The notes under the pieces are model-generated. The model saw only the letters and a program-made list of their open reading frames with translations, was not told where the DNA came from and did no database searches. A program made the translations under genes and the position numbers. A DNA stretch of 62,988 nt, the filler included, from a bacterium (GTDB lineage Bacteria > UBA9089 > CG2-30-40-21 > SBAY01), in assembly GCA_040757115.1 (NCBI GenBank). It is 3 parts of 3 records of this genome, joined end to end, with 100 filler letters (N's around TTAATTAATTAA, not from the genome) between each part and the next. Parts side by side here need not be neighbours in the genome. Positions count along the whole stretch, not along the records: positions 1 to 21,265 come from JBFLYA010000050.1; 2 more parts are not named here. One strand, written 5' to 3'. Shown here one piece after another: positions 3,626 to 48,418 of the stretch (the stretch's first letter is position 1; each line of letters begins with the position of its first letter).

Positions 3626-3994
3626 TATTGCAAAGTTATGGCTAAACCATGAGTTGCAAAAAATAGTGAGTGAATTACAAAATTCCAAATCACAAATTAC
3701 AAATTACAAATAAATTCCAATGACCAAAAATCAAAATTCCAAACAAAAGAAAGAGAAGTGCTTTTCAATGAGGCAATAGAATTAAAGAAGAGTTATATTC
3801 CCCTCTTGAGAGGGGTTAGGGGTGTATCCTTCAATTATTGAAAAACCTAAATCTGACATTATTGAGTAAAATATTCAACTCCCTTTAACAAAATTGACAA
3901 AGCAATAGGTTTTGGAATTTGGTGTTTGGAATTTATTTGGAATTTGGTATTTGAAATTTGGAATTTATATTGCAAGGTTATGGTTAAACCATGA
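3626..3994. mobile_element. Heptamer-hairpin cassette with four-helix-bundle remnant between 27-bp direct repeats
   Basis: TATTGCAA(A/G)GTTATGG(C/T)TAAACCATGA at 3626-3652 and 3968-3994; AAATTCC/AAATTAC arrays versus GGAATTT arrays; remnant LFNEAIELKK...SIIEK. Confidence 0.6.
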
Positions 3995-9655: not shown

Positions 9656-9754
9656 AAAGTTTATAGTTGATAGTTTATAGTTGATAGTTGAAGGACTATA
9701 GACTATAAACTATAAACCATAAACTATAAACGAGTTCCTGGTTTTGCAGAACCC
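9656..9754. repeat. Empty heptamer hairpin plus collapsed TA-type element
   Basis: GTTTATA/GTTGATA then CTATAAA arrays; inverted near-copy at 62793-62876; GAGTTC...TTTTGCAGAACCC at 9732-9754. Confidence 0.65.
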
Positions 9755-10406: not shown

Positions 10407-11619
10407 CGGTAAAAATATTATTCTGGGAATAACAGGAAGTATAGCGGCTTATAAATCTGCAGAGATAACCAGTCAGTTAGTCAAACTTGGAGCAAATGTT
10501 ACGGTTATAATGACTAAATCTGCGATACAATTCATCTCACCTCTTACCCTTCAAACCATATCTAAAAATAAAGTCATCACAGACCTTTTTGAGATACCTG
10601 CTTCATCCGGGGTAGAGCACATAACTTTGGTAGATAAAGCGGATATTTTCTTAATTGCCCCAGCCACAGCAAATATTATTGGTAAAATAGCCTGCGGTAT
10701 AGCCGATGATTTTTTAACCACTTTTGCCCTTGCCTGTCATTGTCCTATTCTCATTGCCCCGGCGATGAATGAAAAAATGTATCTTAACCCAATGGTCCAG
10801 GCAAATATCAAAAAATTAAAATCTTATGGTATCCAGTTTATTGAACCAGAAGAGGGCATTTTAGCCTGTGGTGAAAAAGGATTAGGCAAATTAGCCCATG
10901 TAGATAAAATACTTACCGAGATTGACTTGATTTTAAATTCATCATCTCTACTGAAGGGTAAAAAGATTTTAGTTACTGCTGGTGGCACACGCGAGCCAAT
11001 TGACCCAGTTCGCTATATCGGAAATCGCTCTTCAGGTAAAATGGGTTACGCCCTGGCTTTGGCGGCTAAAGAATTTGGTGCTGAGGTAACATTGATTAGT
11101 GCCCCGACTCAATTAGAGCCGCCTCAAGGTGTAAAAACTATTTTTGTAGAAACCGCCTTACAAATGCAAGATGAGGTATTAAAGGCATTTCCAGAGGTTG
11201 ATGTCGTCATATCTGCGGCGGCAGTTGCCGATTTTTCACCCATCCAGGTTGCCCCACAAAAGATTAAAAAAACTACCGCAAGCCTATCTTTGGAATTAAA
11301 AAAGACCCCTGACATCCTCGCCCAACTGGGCAAAAATAAAAAAGATAAAATACTCATAGGCTTTGCCGCTGAATCTGAAAACCTTATCTTAAATGCAAAA
11401 AAGAAATTAAAAGAAAAAAACTTAGACCTGATTGTGGTTAATGATATTAAAACAGGATTTGGTCAAGACACAAGCCAGGTAACAATTATTACTAGGGATG
11501 ATAGAATTGAGGAATTACCACTTCTACCTAAAAAAGAGATTGCAAGACGAATCCTTGCAGAAATCAGATTTGGGCGGGTGCGTGTAAAATTTATGGGTAA
11601 AAAATATTCTGAGAGTTAG
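10399..11619 (+). CDS. coaBC: Phosphopantothenoylcysteine decarboxylase / ligase
   Basis: GITGSIAAYK, APAMN, TAGGTREPIDPVR, SSGKMG, GFAAE; last ~13 codons come from an inserted element. Confidence 0.96.
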   Translation: MYNGKNIILGITGSIAAYKSAEITSQLVKLGANVTVIMTKSAIQFISPLTLQTISKNKVITDLFEIPASSGVEHITLVDKADIFLIAPATANIIGKIACGIADDFLTTFALACHCPILIAPAMNEKMYLNPMVQANIKKLKSYGIQFIEPEEGILACGEKGLGKLAHVDKILTEIDLILNSSSLLKGKKILVTAGGTREPIDPVRYIGNRSSGKMGYALALAAKEFGAEVTLISAPTQLEPPQGVKTIFVETALQMQDEVLKAFPEVDVVISAAAVADFSPIQVAPQKIKKTTASLSLELKKTPDILAQLGKNKKDKILIGFAAESENLILNAKKKLKEKNLDLIVVNDIKTGFGQDTSQVTIITRDDRIEELPLLPKKEIARRILAEIRFGRVRVKFMGKKYSES

Positions 11620-11960
11620 ACCTGAAATTAAATCAAATATCAAATATCAAAATGCAAAATTACAAATCAAATTTCAAAAAGGACGGGACGGTTCCTTTTA
11701 TCGTTTTTCCTATGATTTTTGTTAGAAATTGGAAATTAGAAATTGGGCTTTTGTCTCTCTCCCTAATTTCTAATTTCAATCCGCAATCTTTCAAACAAAA
11801 GTGAACCGTCCCAAAAGGACTTCTATTTTAACGCTGAAAGGAAAGAGATAATTTTACATTTTGATATGTAATTTTTATATTTGCTTTTTGCATTTTGCTC
11901 TTTGGAGGAGATTGATAAAAATAGAGGTGTAAAAGTTACCCACAAATTTTACATACACCC
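11576..11960. mobile_element. MITE with GGGTG termini (IS256-like), copy 1
   Basis: 25-bp imperfect terminal IR; flanks GATTTGGGC / TATTGGGGC (7/9). Confidence 0.75.
11685..11812. mobile_element. Nested MITE with GGGACGGTTC termini
   Basis: GGGACGGTTC...GAACCGTCCC flanked by perfect AAAAGGAC duplication. Confidence 0.75.
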
Positions 11961-12918: not shown

Positions 12919-12993
12919 AAGGTAAAAGGTTTTATGGTTGAATGGTTGATAGTTGATGGTTGATGGTTGATAGTCTATGAAACTATAAACTTA

Positions 12994-13269
12994 GAGTTCT
13001 GCAAAACTAAGAAACTGTAGTTTTTAAGCGGGTATTTAAAACCTCTTTTTATCAATTTCCTCCAAAGAGCAAAATGCAAAAAGCAAATATAAAAATTACA
13101 TATCAAAATGTAAAATTATCTCTTCCCTTTCAGCGTTAAAATACTTGAAGCAAAGATATTACCAATTTGAAATTTGATTTGTAATTTTGCATTTTGATAT
13201 TTGATTTTTTATCTCTAATTTCAGGTCTACCTCTCAGTTATCTCCCCCAAATCCTATTTTGCAGAACCC
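12994..13269 (-). mobile_element. TA-flanked MITE carrying a deleted four-helix-bundle cassette
   Basis: TA|GAGTTCTGCAAAA...TTTTGCAGAACCC|TA; interior matches both ends of the 20825 gene. Confidence 0.8.
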
Positions 13270-13388
13270 TAACTATAAACTATAAACTATCAACCCTGTT
13301 GCTATATCTGTTCTATGAGAAATTTTCGTTAATAACTACTATATTCCCCCATTTCACTGCCCCATTACGATTTACCTCTTTTTTCCCT

Positions 13389-14218: not shown

Positions 14219-15688
14219 ATGACTTATGATGTCGGAGAAAAAACTAAAAGAAGTATTTTTTGGGTAACTTCTGGTCGAATATGCAATTATATAATTGAAT
14301 TTGTTGGTGGGGTAATAGTCGCCCGGATTCTATTTCCTCAAGATTTTGGGATTATGGCAATTGCCATGATTTTTATTCACTTCGCACAACGATTGGGTGA
14401 ATTTGGTTTTAATGTCGCCTTAATTCAAAAAGAAAAAATTACACAGGACCACATTTTTACAATATTTATGATTAATTTTGGGATGGGAACCATCTTATGC
14501 CTTTCTCTGGTCGGAACTTCTCCTTTTATTGGGAAGTTCTACGATAATGACCTGGTAGGAAAGGTATTGGCTGTTGTTTCCATAGAGTTTATCTTGAGAG
14601 GTTTAGCAAGCACTCCTGTGGCATTGTTGCAGAGGGAACTCAAATATGGTCAACATTCTGCAATTTCTTTGATAAGTATAATTTTATCAACCGGAGTAAC
14701 TATTCTATTAGCCTTAGCTAATTTTGAAATCTGGAGTCTTGTATTTGGCAGATTAGCTGCAAGTGTTGCGGAAATTATTAGTATTATGATTATAACTAAA
14801 TGGATTCCAAAATTTAGGTATAAACATTGGGCAATGAAAGAAATGTTTTCTTTTGGTATATGGATGTTTTTGAGGGCTCAACTTGCTTATTTCCTTAGAA
14901 ATATAGACTATCTTATTATTAGTAAAAGGCTGGGCGTTGTCCCGTTAGGTTTTTATGAAAGAGGAAATAACCTGGTCATTGCCTCTCAAAGACTAATTGG
15001 CATAGGTGTTCAGCAGGTAAGTTTTTCTTCGTTTTCCCGAATTCAAAAAGATAGTGAACTTTTGAAAAATACCTTTCAGAAAATATTAACAGGGCTCTCC
15101 CTCTATAACTATTCTATTTTAATAGGGATGTTTTTAGTTGCTCCTTCATTTATTCCTGTAGTCTATGGGGAAAAATGGATACCAACAATTTTACCTCTTC
15201 AAATTCTATGTTTCTCTGGTATCCCTCGCTCTTTAGAATTTTTAAGTAACTCATTTGCTACGGCCAAAGGAGACTTGAAAAAATTTACAGGAGTCCTGGC
15301 GATTCATTTTATCTTTTTATCTATCGCCTGTTTTATAGGGAGTTTTTATGGTATCATTGGAGTGGCTATTGGTGTAACTATCTCAAGCGTTTTCGTCTAT
15401 ATTCTTCTATTTAATTTCCTGATGCATCTTGGTGGGTTTAAATTAATGGATATTCTGTCACCGCAAATCCCTGCCTTAACCTATATTAGTATTATGGTAT
15501 TAGGGGTAAAATCATGGGAATTAATGATGAAAAACCTCTGGCAAATACAATCATTCCCTATGCTTATTTCCTCTATCCTTGTAGGAGGGATATTATATTT
15601 TGGCGCTTTATTTACGATAAGATTTAAACAGACGGAATTTTTAAGGCTGGAATTAATGACCAGGATTAAATCAGTTCTTAAAAGGTAA
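14219..15688 (+). CDS. Wzx-type polysaccharide flippase
   Basis: ARILFPQDFG, ALIQK, many transmembrane segments, 489 aa. Confidence 0.88.
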   Translation: MTYDVGEKTKRSIFWVTSGRICNYIIEFVGGVIVARILFPQDFGIMAIAMIFIHFAQRLGEFGFNVALIQKEKITQDHIFTIFMINFGMGTILCLSLVGTSPFIGKFYDNDLVGKVLAVVSIEFILRGLASTPVALLQRELKYGQHSAISLISIILSTGVTILLALANFEIWSLVFGRLAASVAEIISIMIITKWIPKFRYKHWAMKEMFSFGIWMFLRAQLAYFLRNIDYLIISKRLGVVPLGFYERGNNLVIASQRLIGIGVQQVSFSSFSRIQKDSELLKNTFQKILTGLSLYNYSILIGMFLVAPSFIPVVYGEKWIPTILPLQILCFSGIPRSLEFLSNSFATAKGDLKKFTGVLAIHFIFLSIACFIGSFYGIIGVAIGVTISSVFVYILLFNFLMHLGGFKLMDILSPQIPALTYISIMVLGVKSWELMMKNLWQIQSFPMLISSILVGGILYFGALFTIRFKQTEFLRLELMTRIKSVLKR

Positions 15689-16177
15689 CTATTCACCCTG
15701 TAGGAAAGTAGGAGAGTAGGGAAGTAGGAAAGGGAAAGAAAATGAATGAGAAGTTAGATGATTTTAGACAACTTGTAGTATGGCAAAAAAGCCATCATTT
15801 AGTGATAAGAATATACGAAATAACCAAAAACTTCCCAACTGAAGAAAAATATGGATTGGTGCAACAGATGTGCCCAGCGGCTGTTTCTATTCCAGCAAAT
15901 ATTGCAGAAGGTTTTAAGAAACAAGGCATAAAGAATAAGTTAAATGCCTATAATATAAGCCAAGGATCTCTTGAAGAACTAAGGTATTATCTAATTCTAT
16001 CTAAAGATCTTAATTATCTGCCAGATTTTCAATCCATTTGGGATATATCTGAAGAAGTGAGTAGGATGCTTATAGGTTTAATCAAATCAATTAAGAGTAA
16101 AATAGTATGAAGTATTTTCCCCTCTTCCTACTTCCTACTTTCCTACTTCCTACTTGCTTGGTATGCTGAATAGTTAC
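15685..16177. mobile_element. GTAA-ended element carrying an intact four-helix-bundle cassette
   Basis: GTAACTATTCA...TGAATAGTTAC; GTAGGAA array upstream and TTCCTAC array downstream of the ORF. Confidence 0.75.
15742..16110 (+). CDS. Four helix bundle protein (23S rRNA IVS protein family)
   Basis: FRQLVVWQK, FPTEEKYGLVQQ, SIPANIAEG, GSLEELRYYL. Confidence 0.92.
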   Translation: MNEKLDDFRQLVVWQKSHHLVIRIYEITKNFPTEEKYGLVQQMCPAAVSIPANIAEGFKKQGIKNKLNAYNISQGSLEELRYYLILSKDLNYLPDFQSIWDISEEVSRMLIGLIKSIKSKIV

Positions 16178-16263
16178 TTATAAAGTAAGTAATCGGTTAA
16201 ATGGTAGCTGGTAACTAATTACCATTCACCAGTTACCAGTTACCAAAAATAAGGAGGCTTTGG

Positions 16264-16509
16264 ATGGAGATTGAAGGAGCAATTAGAAAATTTATCGAGG
16301 ATGACCTTTTAGAAGACTCAATGACTGAATTAAGTAATAATGATTCATTATTAGAAAAAGGCATCATCGATTCATTTAATATGGTCAAACTACTTACATT
16401 TATTGAATCTACATTTTCACTTAAAATTGACGATGAAGAACTTATGCCAGAAAACTTTGACTCAATATCAGCCATTGCAAATTTTGTTAAAAATAAGAGA
16501 CAAGAATGA
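16264..16509 (+). CDS. Acyl/aminoacyl carrier protein
   Basis: GIIDSF phosphopantetheine site, ELMPENFDSI; acidic 81 aa; AGGAGG RBS. Confidence 0.88.
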   Translation: MEIEGAIRKFIEDDLLEDSMTELSNNDSLLEKGIIDSFNMVKLLTFIESTFSLKIDDEELMPENFDSISAIANFVKNKRQE

Positions 16510-17717
16510 AAAATATATCTATTCCTTTTAAAGCCTGGTATGGAGATGAGCAATTTATCCTTGAATTCCCGGATAACTGGGAAATTCAGGAATATAATAT
16601 GGTAGATGCACCTCCAATACCCATTAATGAAATAGAAAAGGCATTTTATAATCCCATCGGTAGTAAAAGAATAAGCGAATTAGTCAGAGGCAAAACTACA
16701 GCCGCTATTGCTGTTGAGGATATGACAAGACCTTCTCCACTTGAGGATATTCTCCAATTAATCTTAAAAGAACTAAAAATAGGTGGGATAGAGGATAAAA
16801 ATATAAAAATAATTATTAGCACAGGCGGGCATAGACCGTTACTCCAGGATGATTTAATCAAAAAATTAGGCAGGGAAATAGTTAAGAGATGTGATATTTA
16901 TAATCATAATCCATTCGAAAATCTTTCAACTCTCCATGGTATCCGAATTAATAGATTCTTTCTTGAGGCAGAATTTAAAATTGTCGTCGGCAGTGTCATT
17001 CCACATCCATTTGCCGGGTTTAGTGGTGGGGCAAAGATAGTCTCGCCGGGATTAACAGGTATAGAGTGGTTAGTTAGAAGTCATAAGTCTGTTCTTATGG
17101 GATTGAAAGGTAGTATTGGGGTAGTTGAAGGGAATAAATTTCGGGCGGAATTAGAACAGATTGCTAAAAATATTGGCGTGGATATTGGGATTAATATTGT
17201 TCCTAATTCTAAAAGACAAATAGCAAAGGTAGTAGCAGGAGATATTGTTGAGGCACATCGCGAGGCAGTAAGATTTGCCCGCGAGATTTATATGACAAAA
17301 ATCCCTCATCAGGCAGATGTTGTTATCCTCAATGCCTATCCAAAGGATACAGAATTGTTACAATCAGAAAATGCCTTTGATTTCTATCGCTCGGCTAATG
17401 ATTCTATAATAAAACAAAATGGCGTAGTCATTTTAATAAGTGCCTGTAGTCTGGGTAGAGGTTACCATGCATTATTTGAACCAGGAATGCAATTATATAG
17501 ACTGCCAGGCAAGAAAAGATTCCTCGGCGATAAAAGGCTTTTTTTCTTCTCACCTTATATTAATCATCTGGATTTTTGTAAGGTTTTCTGGAGTGATTAT
17601 TTCTTTTTTGATAACTGGCAAAAACTCATTACCGAACTTAAAAAAATATATCCAGATAATTGTCAAATAGCCATTTTCCCTTACAGTTCAATTCAATTAG
17701 CCCAAAATGAAGGATAA
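16506..17717 (+). CDS. LarA-family (lactate racemase-like) protein
   Basis: DMTRP, GGHR, NHNP, PHPFAGFSGGAK motifs; ATGA-coupled to the carrier protein. Confidence 0.85.
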   Translation: MKNISIPFKAWYGDEQFILEFPDNWEIQEYNMVDAPPIPINEIEKAFYNPIGSKRISELVRGKTTAAIAVEDMTRPSPLEDILQLILKELKIGGIEDKNIKIIISTGGHRPLLQDDLIKKLGREIVKRCDIYNHNPFENLSTLHGIRINRFFLEAEFKIVVGSVIPHPFAGFSGGAKIVSPGLTGIEWLVRSHKSVLMGLKGSIGVVEGNKFRAELEQIAKNIGVDIGINIVPNSKRQIAKVVAGDIVEAHREAVRFAREIYMTKIPHQADVVILNAYPKDTELLQSENAFDFYRSANDSIIKQNGVVILISACSLGRGYHALFEPGMQLYRLPGKKRFLGDKRLFFFSPYINHLDFCKVFWSDYFFFDNWQKLITELKKIYPDNCQIAIFPYSSIQLAQNEG

Positions 17718-18630: not shown

Positions 18631-18995
18631 GGGTGCGTGTAAAATTTATGGGTAACTATTTAGCCGTCTGAAGTAACGGTTAAATCAATTGAAAATCACA
18701 AAATTCCAAATCACAAATACCAAATTACAAATAAATTTCAATGACCAAAATTCAAAATTCCAAACAATACAGGAAAAAGATTTTTTCTTCAATTATTGAA
18801 AAATCTAAATAAATTCCTCTCGTTGTCATATAATCTTTGGAATTTGAAACTTATTTGGAAATTGGAATTTGGAATTTATTTGAGATTTGGTGCTTGGAAT
18901 TTGTAATTTTCGCATTGAATTTCATCTATTTCTTTATATCGGCAAAAAGATGAATATTCCTCAATATTTTTTACCCACAAATTTTACATACACCT
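18631..18995. mobile_element. MITE with GGGTG termini (IS256-like), copy 2
   Basis: Same termini as 11576-11960; flanks ATTTGAAAC / GTTTGAAAC; heptamer hairpin cargo with KKIFSSIIEKSK* remnant. Confidence 0.75.
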
Positions 18996-19073: not shown

Positions 19074-19550
19074 GTAACCGTTCAGGATATAACCACAGAG
19101 TCACAGAGAACACAGAGGGAATATATAACCACGAATGAACACAAATACAAAAAGATTTGTAGTGCGAGGCTTTAACCTCGCTTCTGGCAAGCAGGAAAGC
19201 GAACCTAATGGTTTTTGCAAAATTAACTTCCACTTTTCTGGAATACCATAAAATAAATTAAAAATCAAACATCAAAATGTAAAATTACAAATCAAAAATC
19301 AAAATATTCTCCAGCTACTTTGTTAATTTACAAGTATTTTTGCATTTTGCATTGTAATTTTGATATTTGCATTTTGATATTTACATTAAAGTTCTTCTTG
19401 CTATCGCTCTCCCCAAAAGAGGAACCTATTTATGAAAAAGCAATAAGGTTCGCACTACATTTATGGGATGTCAGAGGTTAATTCGTATCCATTTGTGGCT
19501 AATTTCCTTAATTCTCTGTGAACTCTGTGCCTCTGTGGCTGAACGCTTAC
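19074..19550. mobile_element. GTAA-ended MITE with 9-mer arms, REP doublet and nested insert
   Basis: GTAACCGTTCAG...CTGAACGCTTAC; flanks GAGTTTTT / AAGTTTTT; insert-free inverted copy at 41502-41748. Confidence 0.8.
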
Positions 19551-20724: not shown

Positions 20725-20764
20725 TTTATTTACACCTTAACTCTTTACGCCCTGGCAAGAAATA

Positions 20765-21265
20765 GGGTTCTGCAAAATAGGATTTGGGGAATTAGAGATA
20801 AAAATTCAAATATCAAATATCAAAATGCAAAATTACAAATCAAATTTCAAAAAGGATTTCAAGAAAAGACTGTATAACTTTACTCTGCGACTTATAGAAT
20901 TCATCGATAAGTTACCAAAGGATAGTGTTTCTCAAAGAATTGGTGATCAATTATTACGGAGTGGTACAAGCATCATTGGGAATTATATTGAAGGGCAGGC
21001 GGCGAGTAGTAAAAAAGATTTTACTAATTTCTTTGATACATCTCTAAAATCAACTAATGAAAGTAAGTTATGGCTTGCATTACTTCGTGATAGTAAACGT
21101 GCTAAACCAGAGGAAGTAGCATGGTTTCTCAAAGAGTTGGAGGAATTTGGTAATATCTTTGCTTCAAGTATTTTAACGCTGAAAGGAAAGAGATAATTTT
21201 ACATTTTGATATGTAATTTTTATATTTGCTTTTTGCATTTTGATTTTTGGAGAATACCCGCTTAA
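20765..21265 (+). mobile_element. TA-flanked element with intact four-helix-bundle gene (right end lost in the gap)
   Basis: TA|GGGTTCTGCAAAATAGG start; flanks match 12994-13269 and 60995-61380 in reverse. Confidence 0.75.
20825..21196 (+). CDS. Four helix bundle protein
   Basis: QLLRSGTSIIGNYIEG, ASSKKDF, KSTNESKLWL. Confidence 0.92.
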   Translation: MQNYKSNFKKDFKKRLYNFTLRLIEFIDKLPKDSVSQRIGDQLLRSGTSIIGNYIEGQAASSKKDFTNFFDTSLKSTNESKLWLALLRDSKRAKPEEVAWFLKELEEFGNIFASSILTLKGKR

Positions 21266-25584: not shown

Positions 25585-27734
25585 GATATTTAGTTTTGAC
25601 CCTGACATTGCTTGGGGTAATGTTAATAATGAATAATAGGAATGTCTGCACTGAGGAAAATGCCTATTTCTATTTTAATCAAGGAGAAAAGTATCGAGCA
25701 GAAAAAAACTATGAAGCGGCAATCTCTATGTATAAAAAGGCAATAAAATTAAATCCTGACTACGATATCACCTACAATAATCTTGGCTGTGCTTATTATG
25801 AAAAAGGACAGTTTGATGAGGCAATTGCTAATTATAAAAAGGCATTAGAATTTAACTTAACGACAAAAGTTACACATAGTAATCTTGCCTGTGCTTATTA
25901 TTATAAAGGGATGTTTGATGAGGCAATTGAGGAGTTCAAAAAGGAATTAGAAAATAACCCTGTATGCGTTGACTCGTTAAATGGTCTTGGTTGTGCTTAT
26001 TATAACAAAAAAATGTATGAGGAGGCAATAAAATGGTTCAAAAAGGCACTTGAAATTAACCCGGATTATACCTCTGCTAAAAATAAGTTAGCCTCAGCAA
26101 AAAAGGCGATTGAAAAAGAAAATTATTGCAAATACTACAATTCAGGTATTGACCAACTATCTCAACAAAAATATGAAGATGCCATCTCAAGTTTTAACCA
26201 GGCACTCGAATATACCACAATGGATTATGAAAAGACACTGGTAAAAGAAAAGATAAAATCTGCACAAGACAACTTAAATAAGATAAGAATAAGAGAAAAT
26301 TACTTCAGATGCTACAATTCAGGTATTGACCAGTTTGCTCAACAAAATTGGGAACAGGCAATTTTGAACCTTAATCAAGCACTTGAATACGCCGCCACCG
26401 ATGAAGAAAAGATAATGATAAAAGAAAAGTTAAAATCTGCACAAATTGGTTTGAATAAACGGAAAGTTAAAGCAAACTACTGGAAGCGGTATAATTCAGG
26501 AATTGAACAGATGGCTCAAAAAAGATGGGAAAATGCCATTAATGACTTTAATAACGCCCTTAAATATGCCACTACCGCCGATGAAAAAGGAAAGATAACC
26601 GTCCAATTAAATCAGGCAAAAAGGTCTTTGAATGAGACAAAACGCCAGGAAACCTACCATAAATGGTATAATTTAGGAATGAGCCGAATAGCTCAAAATA
26701 GATGTAAAGATGCAATGGAAAATTTTAGTCAGGCACTTAAATACGCTATTACCGATGAAGAAAAGATAATGGCACAAAAAAAGATAGATGAAGTCAGAAC
26801 AATTCTGGAAAAATCCCAACAATCTAAAGCCATCGCCTCTTTAAAAACTCCAGAAACCCCAGTAGAGATAAAGCAAAAAGTATTAATCAAAGAAAATAAA
26901 CCATGGAAATTTAATGTAAGTGATATTGCCTCGGTTTTATTGATAGTTATTTTAGGGTTATCCATTTTGCCACAATCAAATTCTATAAAAGCAAAAATTT
27001 ATCTCTGGCAAAAAAAATATGACCAAGCGGCTTCAATCTATGAAGAGGCAATATCAAAAGGGAAAAAAGTCTGGCTTTATCCAGCATTAGCAGAAATTTA
27101 TCTGAAATTAGACCAGGTAGATGAAAAGGCTATAAAAGTCTATGACAAAGCGATATTCCTTGATGCCGGTAATCGAAAAATGATTAGAATTGTTGCAGAT
27201 TATTATATGAAGAAAAAGAGACCCGGAGAACGAGCAATTGAAATTTTTGAAGAGGCATTAAAATTTGACCCAAATAATATTCATATATTGAATATTCTTG
27301 GAAAAACATATTGTAATTATGGAGAGGAGGCAAAGGCAATTGATGTTTTTCAAAAATTATATGAATTAGGACATAGAGATGAAACTGTGGTAAAAAATCT
27401 GGCAAAGGTATATCTGAAAGAAGATAGATTGGATAATGAGGCAATTCCAATCTATGAGGAGGCAATGAAATACGAACCAGAAAATCATGATTTGATTATT
27501 GCCTTGAGCCAGGCATATATAAATCAAGGAATGAGGGATAAAAGAACAGTAGATATTTACAGGAAGTCTGTTGGTTTATGCTCAAACTTAGTCAAAACTT
27601 ATAAAGAAAAAAATGATTTCGATAAAGCACGGCGATACGCAGAAATAGCCTACAAAATAGTTTATTGCTATTCATCAGGAATAGTCGATAGTTTAGTTCG
27701 CGAAAGCGTCATGGGGGTCTTGAATAAATTGTAA
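25581..27734 (+). CDS. Tetratricopeptide repeat membrane protein
   Basis: Multiple TPR units on both sides of one hydrophobic segment; N-terminal signal. Confidence 0.85.
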   Translation: MRYLVLTLTLLGVMLIMNNRNVCTEENAYFYFNQGEKYRAEKNYEAAISMYKKAIKLNPDYDITYNNLGCAYYEKGQFDEAIANYKKALEFNLTTKVTHSNLACAYYYKGMFDEAIEEFKKELENNPVCVDSLNGLGCAYYNKKMYEEAIKWFKKALEINPDYTSAKNKLASAKKAIEKENYCKYYNSGIDQLSQQKYEDAISSFNQALEYTTMDYEKTLVKEKIKSAQDNLNKIRIRENYFRCYNSGIDQFAQQNWEQAILNLNQALEYAATDEEKIMIKEKLKSAQIGLNKRKVKANYWKRYNSGIEQMAQKRWENAINDFNNALKYATTADEKGKITVQLNQAKRSLNETKRQETYHKWYNLGMSRIAQNRCKDAMENFSQALKYAITDEEKIMAQKKIDEVRTILEKSQQSKAIASLKTPETPVEIKQKVLIKENKPWKFNVSDIASVLLIVILGLSILPQSNSIKAKIYLWQKKYDQAASIYEEAISKGKKVWLYPALAEIYLKLDQVDEKAIKVYDKAIFLDAGNRKMIRIVADYYMKKKRPGERAIEIFEEALKFDPNNIHILNILGKTYCNYGEEAKAIDVFQKLYELGHRDETVVKNLAKVYLKEDRLDNEAIPIYEEAMKYEPENHDLIIALSQAYINQGMRDKRTVDIYRKSVGLCSNLVKTYKEKNDFDKARRYAEIAYKIVYCYSSGIVDSLVRESVMGVLNKL

Positions 27735-47819: not shown

Positions 47820-48034
47820 GTAACTATTCACCATTCACAATTTCTTCCCTAAATTTCCTTAATAATGGTGAATGGTGAATTGTCAATTGTGAATTGTGAA
47901 TTATCACTCTTCACGGTGTCAAGCAAACCTGGCCCAAGAGTTCGATGCACCGCTATAGCGCATCCAATGACTCTATTCGATAATTCATCAAATTTCACTT
48001 CGTGCTCTCCGTCCCCTTCGTGGTGAATAGTTAC
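47820..48034. mobile_element. GTAA-ended MITE with perfect 8-bp duplication
   Basis: TTTATTTC|GTAACTATTCACCA...TGGTGAATAGTTAC|TTTATTTC. Confidence 0.85.
47921..47998 (-). pseudogene. GxxExxY protein N-terminal fragment
   Basis: VKFDELSNRVIGCAIAVHRTLGPGLL, broken just before the ExxY motif. Confidence 0.8.
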
Positions 48035-48418
48035 TTTATTTCTACCGATATGTTGTCCCTATGGGACATTATAGCGGTTATTAACTGGAAGTCTACAGAG
48101 GATAATGCCCATAAATAAGGCAGGAGAATAATCGTTCCGTGAGGAACATAATATCGGTAGTCTTACCATGAGAATAATCGTTCCGTTAGGAACATAATAT
48201 CGGTAGGAATAGATAGACAAATCAATCAGTTCCGTAGGAACGATATATTGGTAGAATTAAAGAGATGGATGTTTGTTCAAAATCTTTCTTTTTTTCTGTG
48301 AATAGGCTGAAGGCGAAAGGCTTAAGGCTGAAGATTTTTTATCCTATATCCTTCAGTCTTCAGCCTACTTTTTACTTTCTCCTCCCTTTTATCCGTGCTC
48401 ATCCGTGTTAATCAGTGG

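Follow-up and report, generated by a model that had tools for sequence, protein, structure and literature searches.

A non-autonomous transposon carrying a four-helix-bundle gene between inverted heptamer arrays in a bacterium of the SBAY01 lineage

Introduction

The four-helix-bundle (4HB) family PF05635 was discovered in intervening sequences of 23S rRNA about 30 years ago and, to our knowledge, has been without a known function since; we likewise know of no explanation for the period-7 repeat arrays of bacteria. Both occur together in a stretch of 62,988 nucleotides (the whole stretch of DNA that was analysed, here called the window) from a bacterium of the lineage UBA9089; CG2-30-40-21; SBAY01 (GenBank assembly GCA_040757115.1), in which an intact 4HB gene is enclosed by a heptamer array and its reverse complement. 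The locus raises the question of what kind of unit this is and how it spreads. An earlier note, made from the sequence alone, had suggested a structure-defined mobile or RNA-excised unit at 15685..16177. We find that these coordinates are the exact ends of a non-autonomous transposon, or mobile insertion cassette, with terminal inverted repeats and 8-bp target duplications.

The assembly comprises 4.32 Mb with 36.8% G+C, and the window consists of three of its contigs joined by N's, namely C409 (1-21265), C410 (21366-42183) and C411 (42284-62988). The genome under study is labelled G000 and the same-genus genome with which it was compared, the congener, G001. In the literature, subscription journals not covered, 4HB genes in heptamer hairpins were not found described outside rRNA.

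Results

Architecture, ends and copies of the focal element

The focal element is 493 bp long, lies on the plus strand and belongs to a sub-family with GTAGGAA units, designated F1, whose ends were set by comparing 11 two-ended copies. It opens with a left terminal inverted repeat of 13 bp (GTAACTATTCACC; 15685..15697), followed by a purine-rich upstream arm of GTAGGAA(A)/GTAGGAAA units (15700..15739; Tandem Repeats Finder (TRF) 15700-15732, period 8, 4.1 copies), the end of which is the ribosome-binding region of the 4HB gene. The intact gene (15742..16110) encodes 122 amino acids with profile matches to PF05635 and TIGR02436, and is followed by a downstream arm, a TTCCTAC array that is the reverse complement of the upstream arm (16117..16155; TRF 16124-16155, period 7, 4.4 copies), and by the right terminal inverted repeat GCTGAATAGTTAC (16165..16177). 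The two arms are complementary over 14 nt and 13 nt at 100% and over 32 nt at 72%.

The 10-letter end motif GTAACTATTC occurs 225 and 215 times in the two orientations, against about 8 expected, and perfect 8-bp target duplications flank 8 of the 11 two-ended GTAGGAA-type copies. When GTAACTATTC-ended pairs with a spacing of 60-700 bp were scored, a perfect 8-bp duplication was found for 31 of 111 and one with a single mismatch for a further 3, whereas in the shifted control (the next 8 bp outward) no pair came within two mismatches. A structure-defined or RNA-based mobility is not supported for the focal copy, which has classical terminal inverted repeats and the 8-bp duplications of an IS66-like superfamily. 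BLAST recovered one other full-length F1 copy (on C407, 97.6% identical), about nine partly deleted copies and two without a gene; because the C407 copy is frameshifted by a 1-nt deletion after codon 16 and the rest are deleted or gene-less, the focal gene is the only intact F1 gene in the assembly.

Comparison with the congener and other relatives

That the unit is mobile, as had been proposed, was borne out by precise empty sites for two copies in the congener. Opposite the copy C11:1404-1949, contig C57 of G001 lacks an element and contains ACTTTTCT a single time, and the same holds opposite C20:10653-10936 for contig C217 of G001 with TTCATCCT. In the congener, an insertion without counterpart in G000 lies about 120 nt downstream of the latter site (locus L028); its ends are TGTAGGGTTCTCTAAG, CTAG is present at each junction and a GTTGATA heptamer hairpin occupies the centre, so that hairpin elements of a second type are polymorphic as well.

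The focal site of the congener is occupied by a gutted F1 element, and since this lies at the identical site, the focal insertion predates the split of the two species. A further element is present there, with ends GTAAGAGTTCAGG...CCTGAACGGTTAC and the duplication ATTAAATC. An empty focal site was not recovered, the site being occupied in G001 and the family-level genomes having no match to the flanking genes; the sole order-level match for the focal flanks (in G007) was without synteny, with an unrelated upstream ORF (open reading frame; E 0.17). Vertical conservation at fixed positions, which the earlier note had set against mobility, was thus seen for the focal copy, kept in G001 in its gutted form, but other copies were polymorphic or replaced by different hairpins at the site.

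The upstream host gene, a flippase-type gene matching Polysacc_synt_3 (14219..15688, plus strand; Pfam E 6.5e-76), ends with a TAA stop at 15686-15688, within the left GTAACTATTCACC end of the element. In the congener (G001:C656, locus L008, near 3180) its stop is supplied by the GTAA of the further element; that is, the GTAA of two different elements is the stop of one flippase-type gene in two congeners, the C-termini being slightly different. In another genus, a 233-bp F1-family copy of 97-98% identity was found at 384-616 of locus L009 (G003:C302). The host genes flanking the focal locus had no DNA match in G003, and this copy may reflect recent horizontal spread.

Heptamer hairpins and covariation of their arms

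Period-7 arrays (TRF score of at least 40) number 1170 in the genome and 1 in a block-shuffled version of it, which excludes chance genome-wide; the corresponding numbers are 515 and 2 for period 8, and 21 and 1 for period 6. Array pairs within 1.5 kb comprise 454 inverted and 211 direct ones, with 63 canonical units. At least 364 of the 454 inverted pairs have loops under 200 nt, and in 29 the loop measures 300-500 nt. Nearly all PF05635 matches are flanked by complementary arrays of their own unit (among them GGGACTC, GTGTCG, GCAGAGG, TAGTTGA, GATTAGA, TAGTCAG, GTGAATT and GTAGAGA), and the period of the gene-bearing cassettes is mostly 7, with a range of 6 to 9.

Arm pairing was compared all-against-all for 40 gene loci, of which 15 belong to this genome and 25 to others of the phylum. 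The own downstream arm was the best partner in 29 of them (14/15 in this genome, 15/25 in the phylum), and the score of the own pair exceeded the 99th percentile of 1560 cross pairs in 26; among the 11 loci in which it was not top-ranked, at least 4 show no arms. As own arms pair best in these 29 loci, the arms covary while their sequence differs. This agrees with the inference of the earlier note that pairing, rather than sequence, is conserved.

The same covariation speaks for a rival explanation in which the hairpin is recognised as DNA or RNA and the heptamer arms themselves are sites of recombination or excision. This explanation also gains from "bare" cassettes, which lack recognisable terminal repeats and include those on C26, C68 and C226. 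Three bare cassettes were set against their counterparts in G001. The first is retained there at 94% identity, with 8 versus 4 upstream units and with 5 differences (1 synonymous and 4 non-synonymous), which are uninformative for dN/dS. At the other two sites the congener has a different, gene-less hairpin in the same intergenic gap: upstream of rpmF (C26), TAGTCAG arms with their gene correspond to a long AATTACC hairpin, and in the second case GTAGAGA arms with their gene correspond to a gene-less CCACAGAG hairpin. Two further families point the same way. The 151-bp element F3, with CTAGTGCTCTGTCGC ends, has a 4HB cassette in place of its centre in three long copies, and F2 has ends of its own (ATAGGGTTCTGCAAAAT) and duplications of roughly 9 bp, with 6 of 18 listed copies lying, by inspection, within heptamer arrays, which cover 1.9% of the genome. 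Against recognition of the hairpin stand the classical ends and 8-bp duplications of the focal family and the rarity of GTAACTATTC-ended elements abutting outside arrays (2/112); moreover, no junction signature that would explain the replacements was found in the three bare cassettes compared with G001. We regard this explanation as unlikely. The comparison of F1, F2, F3 and the bare cassettes indicates that one module rides in several unrelated end-types and also without ends.

Expression from the host operon and the predicted RNA stem

The focal copy was seen to lie within a row of co-directional genes, in agreement with the apparent operon described before. The element is followed on the plus strand by a small carrier-protein-like gene (16264..16509; PP-binding 20.7 bits, just under the cut-off of 20.8) and then by a LarA_N-domain gene (16506-17717). 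Orientation was counted for 41 gene-bearing loci, 37 of which had both neighbours callable, the related genomes among them not being independent: the 4HB gene points the same way as both neighbours in 30, opposes both in 1 and is mixed in 6, and an insert in a co-directional gene pair should take either orientation equally often. Among the 11 F1 copies, 5 are co-oriented with both neighbours, 2 opposite and the rest mixed or uncallable, which is too few to tell. Within 15300-16600, no sigma-70-like promoter site was found on the plus strand and no terminator-like site was found; the latter result speaks against the arms as a terminator. The co-orientation of 30 versus 1 together with the lack of a sense-strand promoter-like site suggests read-through expression, the transcript of the host operon being the most likely source of 4HB expression.

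For the focal region 15670-16195, RNA folding predicted a stability of -136.1 kcal/mol (z = -4.28), which none of 100 shuffles reached. In the predicted RNA fold the closing stem is formed by the terminal repeats and the arms, and the start region lies at the top of the stem. The genome contains an RNase III gene (C26:429-812). According to PMC4990558, RNase III of Coxiella cuts the intervening sequence in mid-stem, at the first heptamer before the ORF, and this leads to the proposal that the cassette RNA would be cut from the operon transcript.

Mismatches within the arms were classified on the sense strand as a test of RNA-level versus DNA-level pairing by an excess of the G·U type, with a null result: G·U-type and A·C-type mismatches number 15 and 7 in this genome and 39 and 41 in the 25 phylum loci, 17 of the 39 coming from one odd locus. 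Such symmetry fits arms without a function, in which slippage would grow the arrays, templated repair in the palindrome would keep the arms alike, and the 4HB gene would be a passenger with an unrelated role. The difference of 8 versus 4 upstream units at the conserved bare cassette agrees with this, as does the report in PMC4692102 that heptamers are over-represented repeats in many bacteria, for which polymerase slippage was proposed. Functionless arms, however, leave unexplained why it is 4HB genes that are present in such hairpins, with own arms top-ranked in 14/15 and 15/25 loci, and why the genes are so strongly co-oriented with host genes; we consider them very unlikely.

The four-helix-bundle protein

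The focal ORF matches PF05635 along the entire profile (positions 1-106 of 106; 120.1 bits with a cut-off of 33.8, E 6e-35) and TIGR02436 (E 3.2e-33, 114.2 bits, cut-off 24), and its product matches the solved relatives 2gsc_A (E 1.4e-13) and 2rld_A (E 5.7e-8) in the PDB. Scores against the models of Avd, the accessory protein of diversity-generating retroelements, remain below the cut-offs (bAvd 37.8 bits with a cut-off of 40; DivGenRetAVD 35.3 bits with a cut-off of 80). The link of the family to 23S intervening sequences and to Avd, stated in the earlier note, is in print in PMC4990558 and PMC10053308. PF05635 has 26 matches in the genome, 23 of which exceed the cut-off, and a family search across 25 genomes of the phylum found it in 22. 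Two 4HB variants of 190 amino acids (C135:9472-10041 and C108:3239-3805; loci L042 and L043) are extended by an insert that separates helices 3 and 4; its DNA repeats the array of the respective locus for a third time, here inside the reading frame.

A protein of this kind might itself be what the arms serve, as binding arrays in DNA or RNA for the ring-shaped 4HB protein of the cassette, which would act in trans on all hairpins, those without a gene among them, to maintain or spread them in a REPIN/RAYT-like manner. Three repeat families have the 4HB gene as their sole ORF while most of their copies are without it, and about 20 gene-bearing loci stand beside 454 inverted pairs; the relatives 2gsc and 2rld were each deposited with 5 chains, and S49, E56 and E79 are invariant columns among 15 paralogues. 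Furthermore, the density of period-7 arrays rises with the number per Mb of 4HB genes (n = 12; Spearman 0.79 with a nominal p of 0.002) in this genome and 11 phylum genomes, the latter sampled at 28-100 kb each and with G015 dropped (3.6 kb), and the within-family contrasts of G018 with G020 and of G009 with G007 agree in direction. Array density per 100 kb is 0, 0 and 7.2 in the three genomes that lack a PF05635 gene and 4-30 in gene-rich ones. On the other hand, the samples are small, kin genomes are not independent, G012 has 15 arrays per 100 kb but only 2 genes, and the correlation would be equally expected from gene and arrays travelling together on elements. The correlation thus fits a trans-acting protein or simple co-travel alike, and binding in trans seems to us an improbable account of the arms.

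Candidate transposase

The ends of IS66 elements start with GTAA. Six PF03050 (IS66-type) matches were found in the genome, all broken or partial. The best of them lies in a 1563-bp unit, C198:3061-4623, with ends GTAACCGTTCAGG and its complement, and its PF03050 gene (E 1.9e-39) has two in-frame stops. Counted on both strands, GTAACCGTTCAGG occurs 390 times, GTAACTATTCAGC 200 times and GTAACTATTCACC 182 times, and the other commonest variants 169 and 122 times. Pairs with GTAA[CG]CGTTCA ends number 202, of which 199 were scored, and 8-bp duplications are perfect in 77 and have one mismatch in 13; the control gave no duplication with one or fewer mismatches. Two captured elements of the IS66 family produce 8-bp repeats (PMC3281130, Table 2). 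We infer that F1 elements are mobilised in trans by an IS66-type transposase. A transposase between widely spaced ends was also considered, but the 12 end pairs spaced 0.8-5.5 kb contain ORFs that, judged by eye, look ordinary. Y1 transposases were rejected as movers, since their 7 matches in the genome showed no link to the hairpins.

Gene-less arm pairs and other elements of the window

The window contains a second 4HB element (20762..21265, plus strand), which belongs to family F2, has the end ATAGGGTTCTGCAAAAT, is truncated by the contig end at 21265 and is 97.6% identical to a copy on contig C126. Its ORF (20825-21196) lies between AAATATC-type (20802-20851) and TTTTGAT-type (21197-21249) arms, so that both intact genes, the first with its GTAGGAA/TTCCTAC pair, are found between inverted arrays as the earlier note had described.

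That note had further listed 11 sites of arm pairs without an intact gene. Eight exceed the best of 30 shuffles (near 3.7, 9.7, 12.9, 16.2, 18.7, 29.3, 47.8 and 48.3 kb, that at 16.2 kb marginally), and those at 6.0, 11.7 and 57.3 kb do not, the one at 11.7 kb being nonetheless F2-homologous by BLAST. Most of the "empty arm pairs" are real, and at least some are deletion derivatives of 4HB elements. Gene-less copies are numerous in F2 and F3, with 288 and 135 BLAST segments, respectively.

The following gene-less features are given without strand. An arm pair with 57-nt arms of 82% complementarity, by eye of F3 type, lies at 3680..3966, and another with 57-nt arms of 75% complementarity, assigned to F3 by inspection, at 18700..18910. 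An F2 derivative occupies 11609..11928 (BLAST 11609-11684 at 89% and 11824-11928 at 99%), and an F2-type arm pair at 19254..19388, absent from the earlier list, was recovered by BLAST. At 12944..13295, a GTTGATA/AACTATA arm pair has an F2-type fragment nested in its loop. An AGTTGAT/ACTATAA hairpin with a loop of less than 10 nt is found at 9658..9731 and an AGGCTGA hairpin at 48303..48367. A 215-bp element with GTAACTATTCACC ends (47820..48034, equivalent to C411:5537-5751) contains ATTCACA and CACGAAG arrays and a local hairpin at 47823-47883.

Directly after the focal copy, and separate from it, a gene-less hairpin element with GGTAACT/AGTTACC arms lies at 16186..16262 on the plus strand. 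Its 3' end, AAAAATAAGGAGG, is the ribosome-binding site of the following gene, as it is at a second locus on contig C2, and a Shine-Dalgarno sequence appears to come with the element itself. This repeat has DNA matches in genomes G002-G005, and on contig C2 another 4HB element is situated inside the loop of a GGTAACT-type hairpin.

Cassettes were also observed beside CRISPR repeats. C356:5007-7300 is a genuine CRISPR array of at least 23 repeats with the core CCTGATGAATAAGGGATTG and a period of 72-79 nt; at its end come a 4HB cassette with GGGACTC arms and, after it, a GGGACTC hairpin that is empty, each placed between repeats in the manner of a spacer. At C430:38331-38908, two solo CRISPR repeats bracket another 4HB cassette. 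Elsewhere in the window, 26117-26444 is occupied by 1.9 copies of a 177-bp tandem repeat with 76% matches.

Discussion

The explanation that we favour, and hold to be probable, is that the focal feature is an IS66-like non-autonomous transposon carrying a module of the intervening-sequence type, which would be expressed by operon read-through and released by RNase III. An IS66-type transposase acting in trans would move the 493-bp element. The insertion into the last codons of the flippase-type gene took place before the species split, the GTAA end now supplying the stop, and the host operon transcript would carry the 4HB gene by read-through. A long stem of some 50-60 pairs, built from the terminal repeats and arms, is predicted to enclose the gene, and RNase III would cut this stem and release the cassette RNA. 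Gene-less hairpins would arise via internal deletion and spread as miniature elements.

Several observations weigh against this explanation. No intact IS66-type transposase was found in the assembly, and the end of the C198 element is identical to GTAACTATTCAGC at 10 of 13 positions, not exactly. The target duplication of the focal copy itself (CTTAAAAG at 15677..15684 with its partner TTATAAAG at 16178-16185) is degenerate, with 5/8 positions identical; this marks an old insertion that is common to the congener. An IS66-like transposase does not explain the bare cassettes, which have no terminal repeats, and the number of arm units differs between the congeners at the conserved cassette. Arm mismatches of the G·U and A·C types amount in total to 54 and 48, hairpins persist without a gene in cis, given the short loops of most inverted pairs, and the orientation bias could partly reflect ascertainment, since it was counted on gene-bearing loci only and includes kin genomes.

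MITEs (miniature transposable elements with inverted repeats) and the mobile insertion cassettes of the IS66 family, of which MIC231 is an example, are like the focal element in having terminal inverted repeats, an 8-bp duplication and no transposase inside, and also in their many internally deleted copies and empty sites in a relative. They differ in that the cargo here is always one kind of module, a heptamer hairpin with or without the 4HB gene, and in that this module is also found inside at least three other end-types (F2, F3 and F4) and without ends.

The ORF-bearing 23S intervening sequences of Coxiella burnetii and Leptospira share the protein family and the position of the ORF in a stem loop, and have GACAGAT three times just before the ORF, in a copy number that varies between strains (PMC4990558). 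A terminal complementary stem is likewise predicted to enclose the ORF of the focal element, which, unlike them, lies between protein-coding genes (Polysacc_synt_3 and carrier-protein-like) rather than in 23S rRNA and has longer arm arrays, terminal repeats outside them, target duplications and numerous copies in the genome. Older proposals cited in that source regard the intervening sequence as a transposition remnant, or its ORF as serving mobility. Avd has a homologous four-helix-bundle fold (PMC10053308). The focal protein is set apart from Avd by its sub-cut-off scores and by neighbours of the flippase, carrier-protein-like and LarA_N types; a reverse transcriptase was absent among the four neighbouring ORFs scanned, and no search for template repeats was made.

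The heptamers of Xanthomonas (GGGAATC) and the cyanobacterial STRR heptamers resemble those described here in a genome-wide excess of period 7 and in length variation between relatives, and those of Xanthomonas often form convergent inverted pairs, 70-75 per genome, as here (PMC4692102). The available part of that source discusses G-quadruplexes and there makes no mention of a 4HB gene or of transposon ends.

In REPIN-RAYT systems, hundreds of short palindromic repeats per genome are accompanied by few copies of one associated gene. The present genome is similar in its hundreds of hairpins and few copies of the associated gene, the link here resting on correlation only. It is dissimilar in that no nuclease or transposase motif is known in the 4HB protein, unlike in RAYT, and in that the hairpin sequences, unlike those of REPINs, differ between families. 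A bolder idea, to which we give little credence, is that hairpins and 4HB genes form one self-propagating system, in which the protein, expressed from host operons by the few intact genes, would act in trans on hundreds of gene-less hairpins of changing sequence and read the periodicity of the stem and not its letters, and the ends (IS66-like or IS5-like) would be interchangeable vehicles. If true, the cassettes in 23S rRNA and those between CRISPR repeats would be accounted for as insertions into RNAs that are heavily transcribed and processed.

The genome studied here ties the PF05635 family to period-7 arrays and adds a first concrete route by which its cassettes spread, evident from ends with target duplications, clean empty sites and gene-bearing copies beside gene-less ones. 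It also provides two testable regularities, namely the co-orientation of the gene with host operons and an array density that tracks the number of 4HB genes in the phylum.

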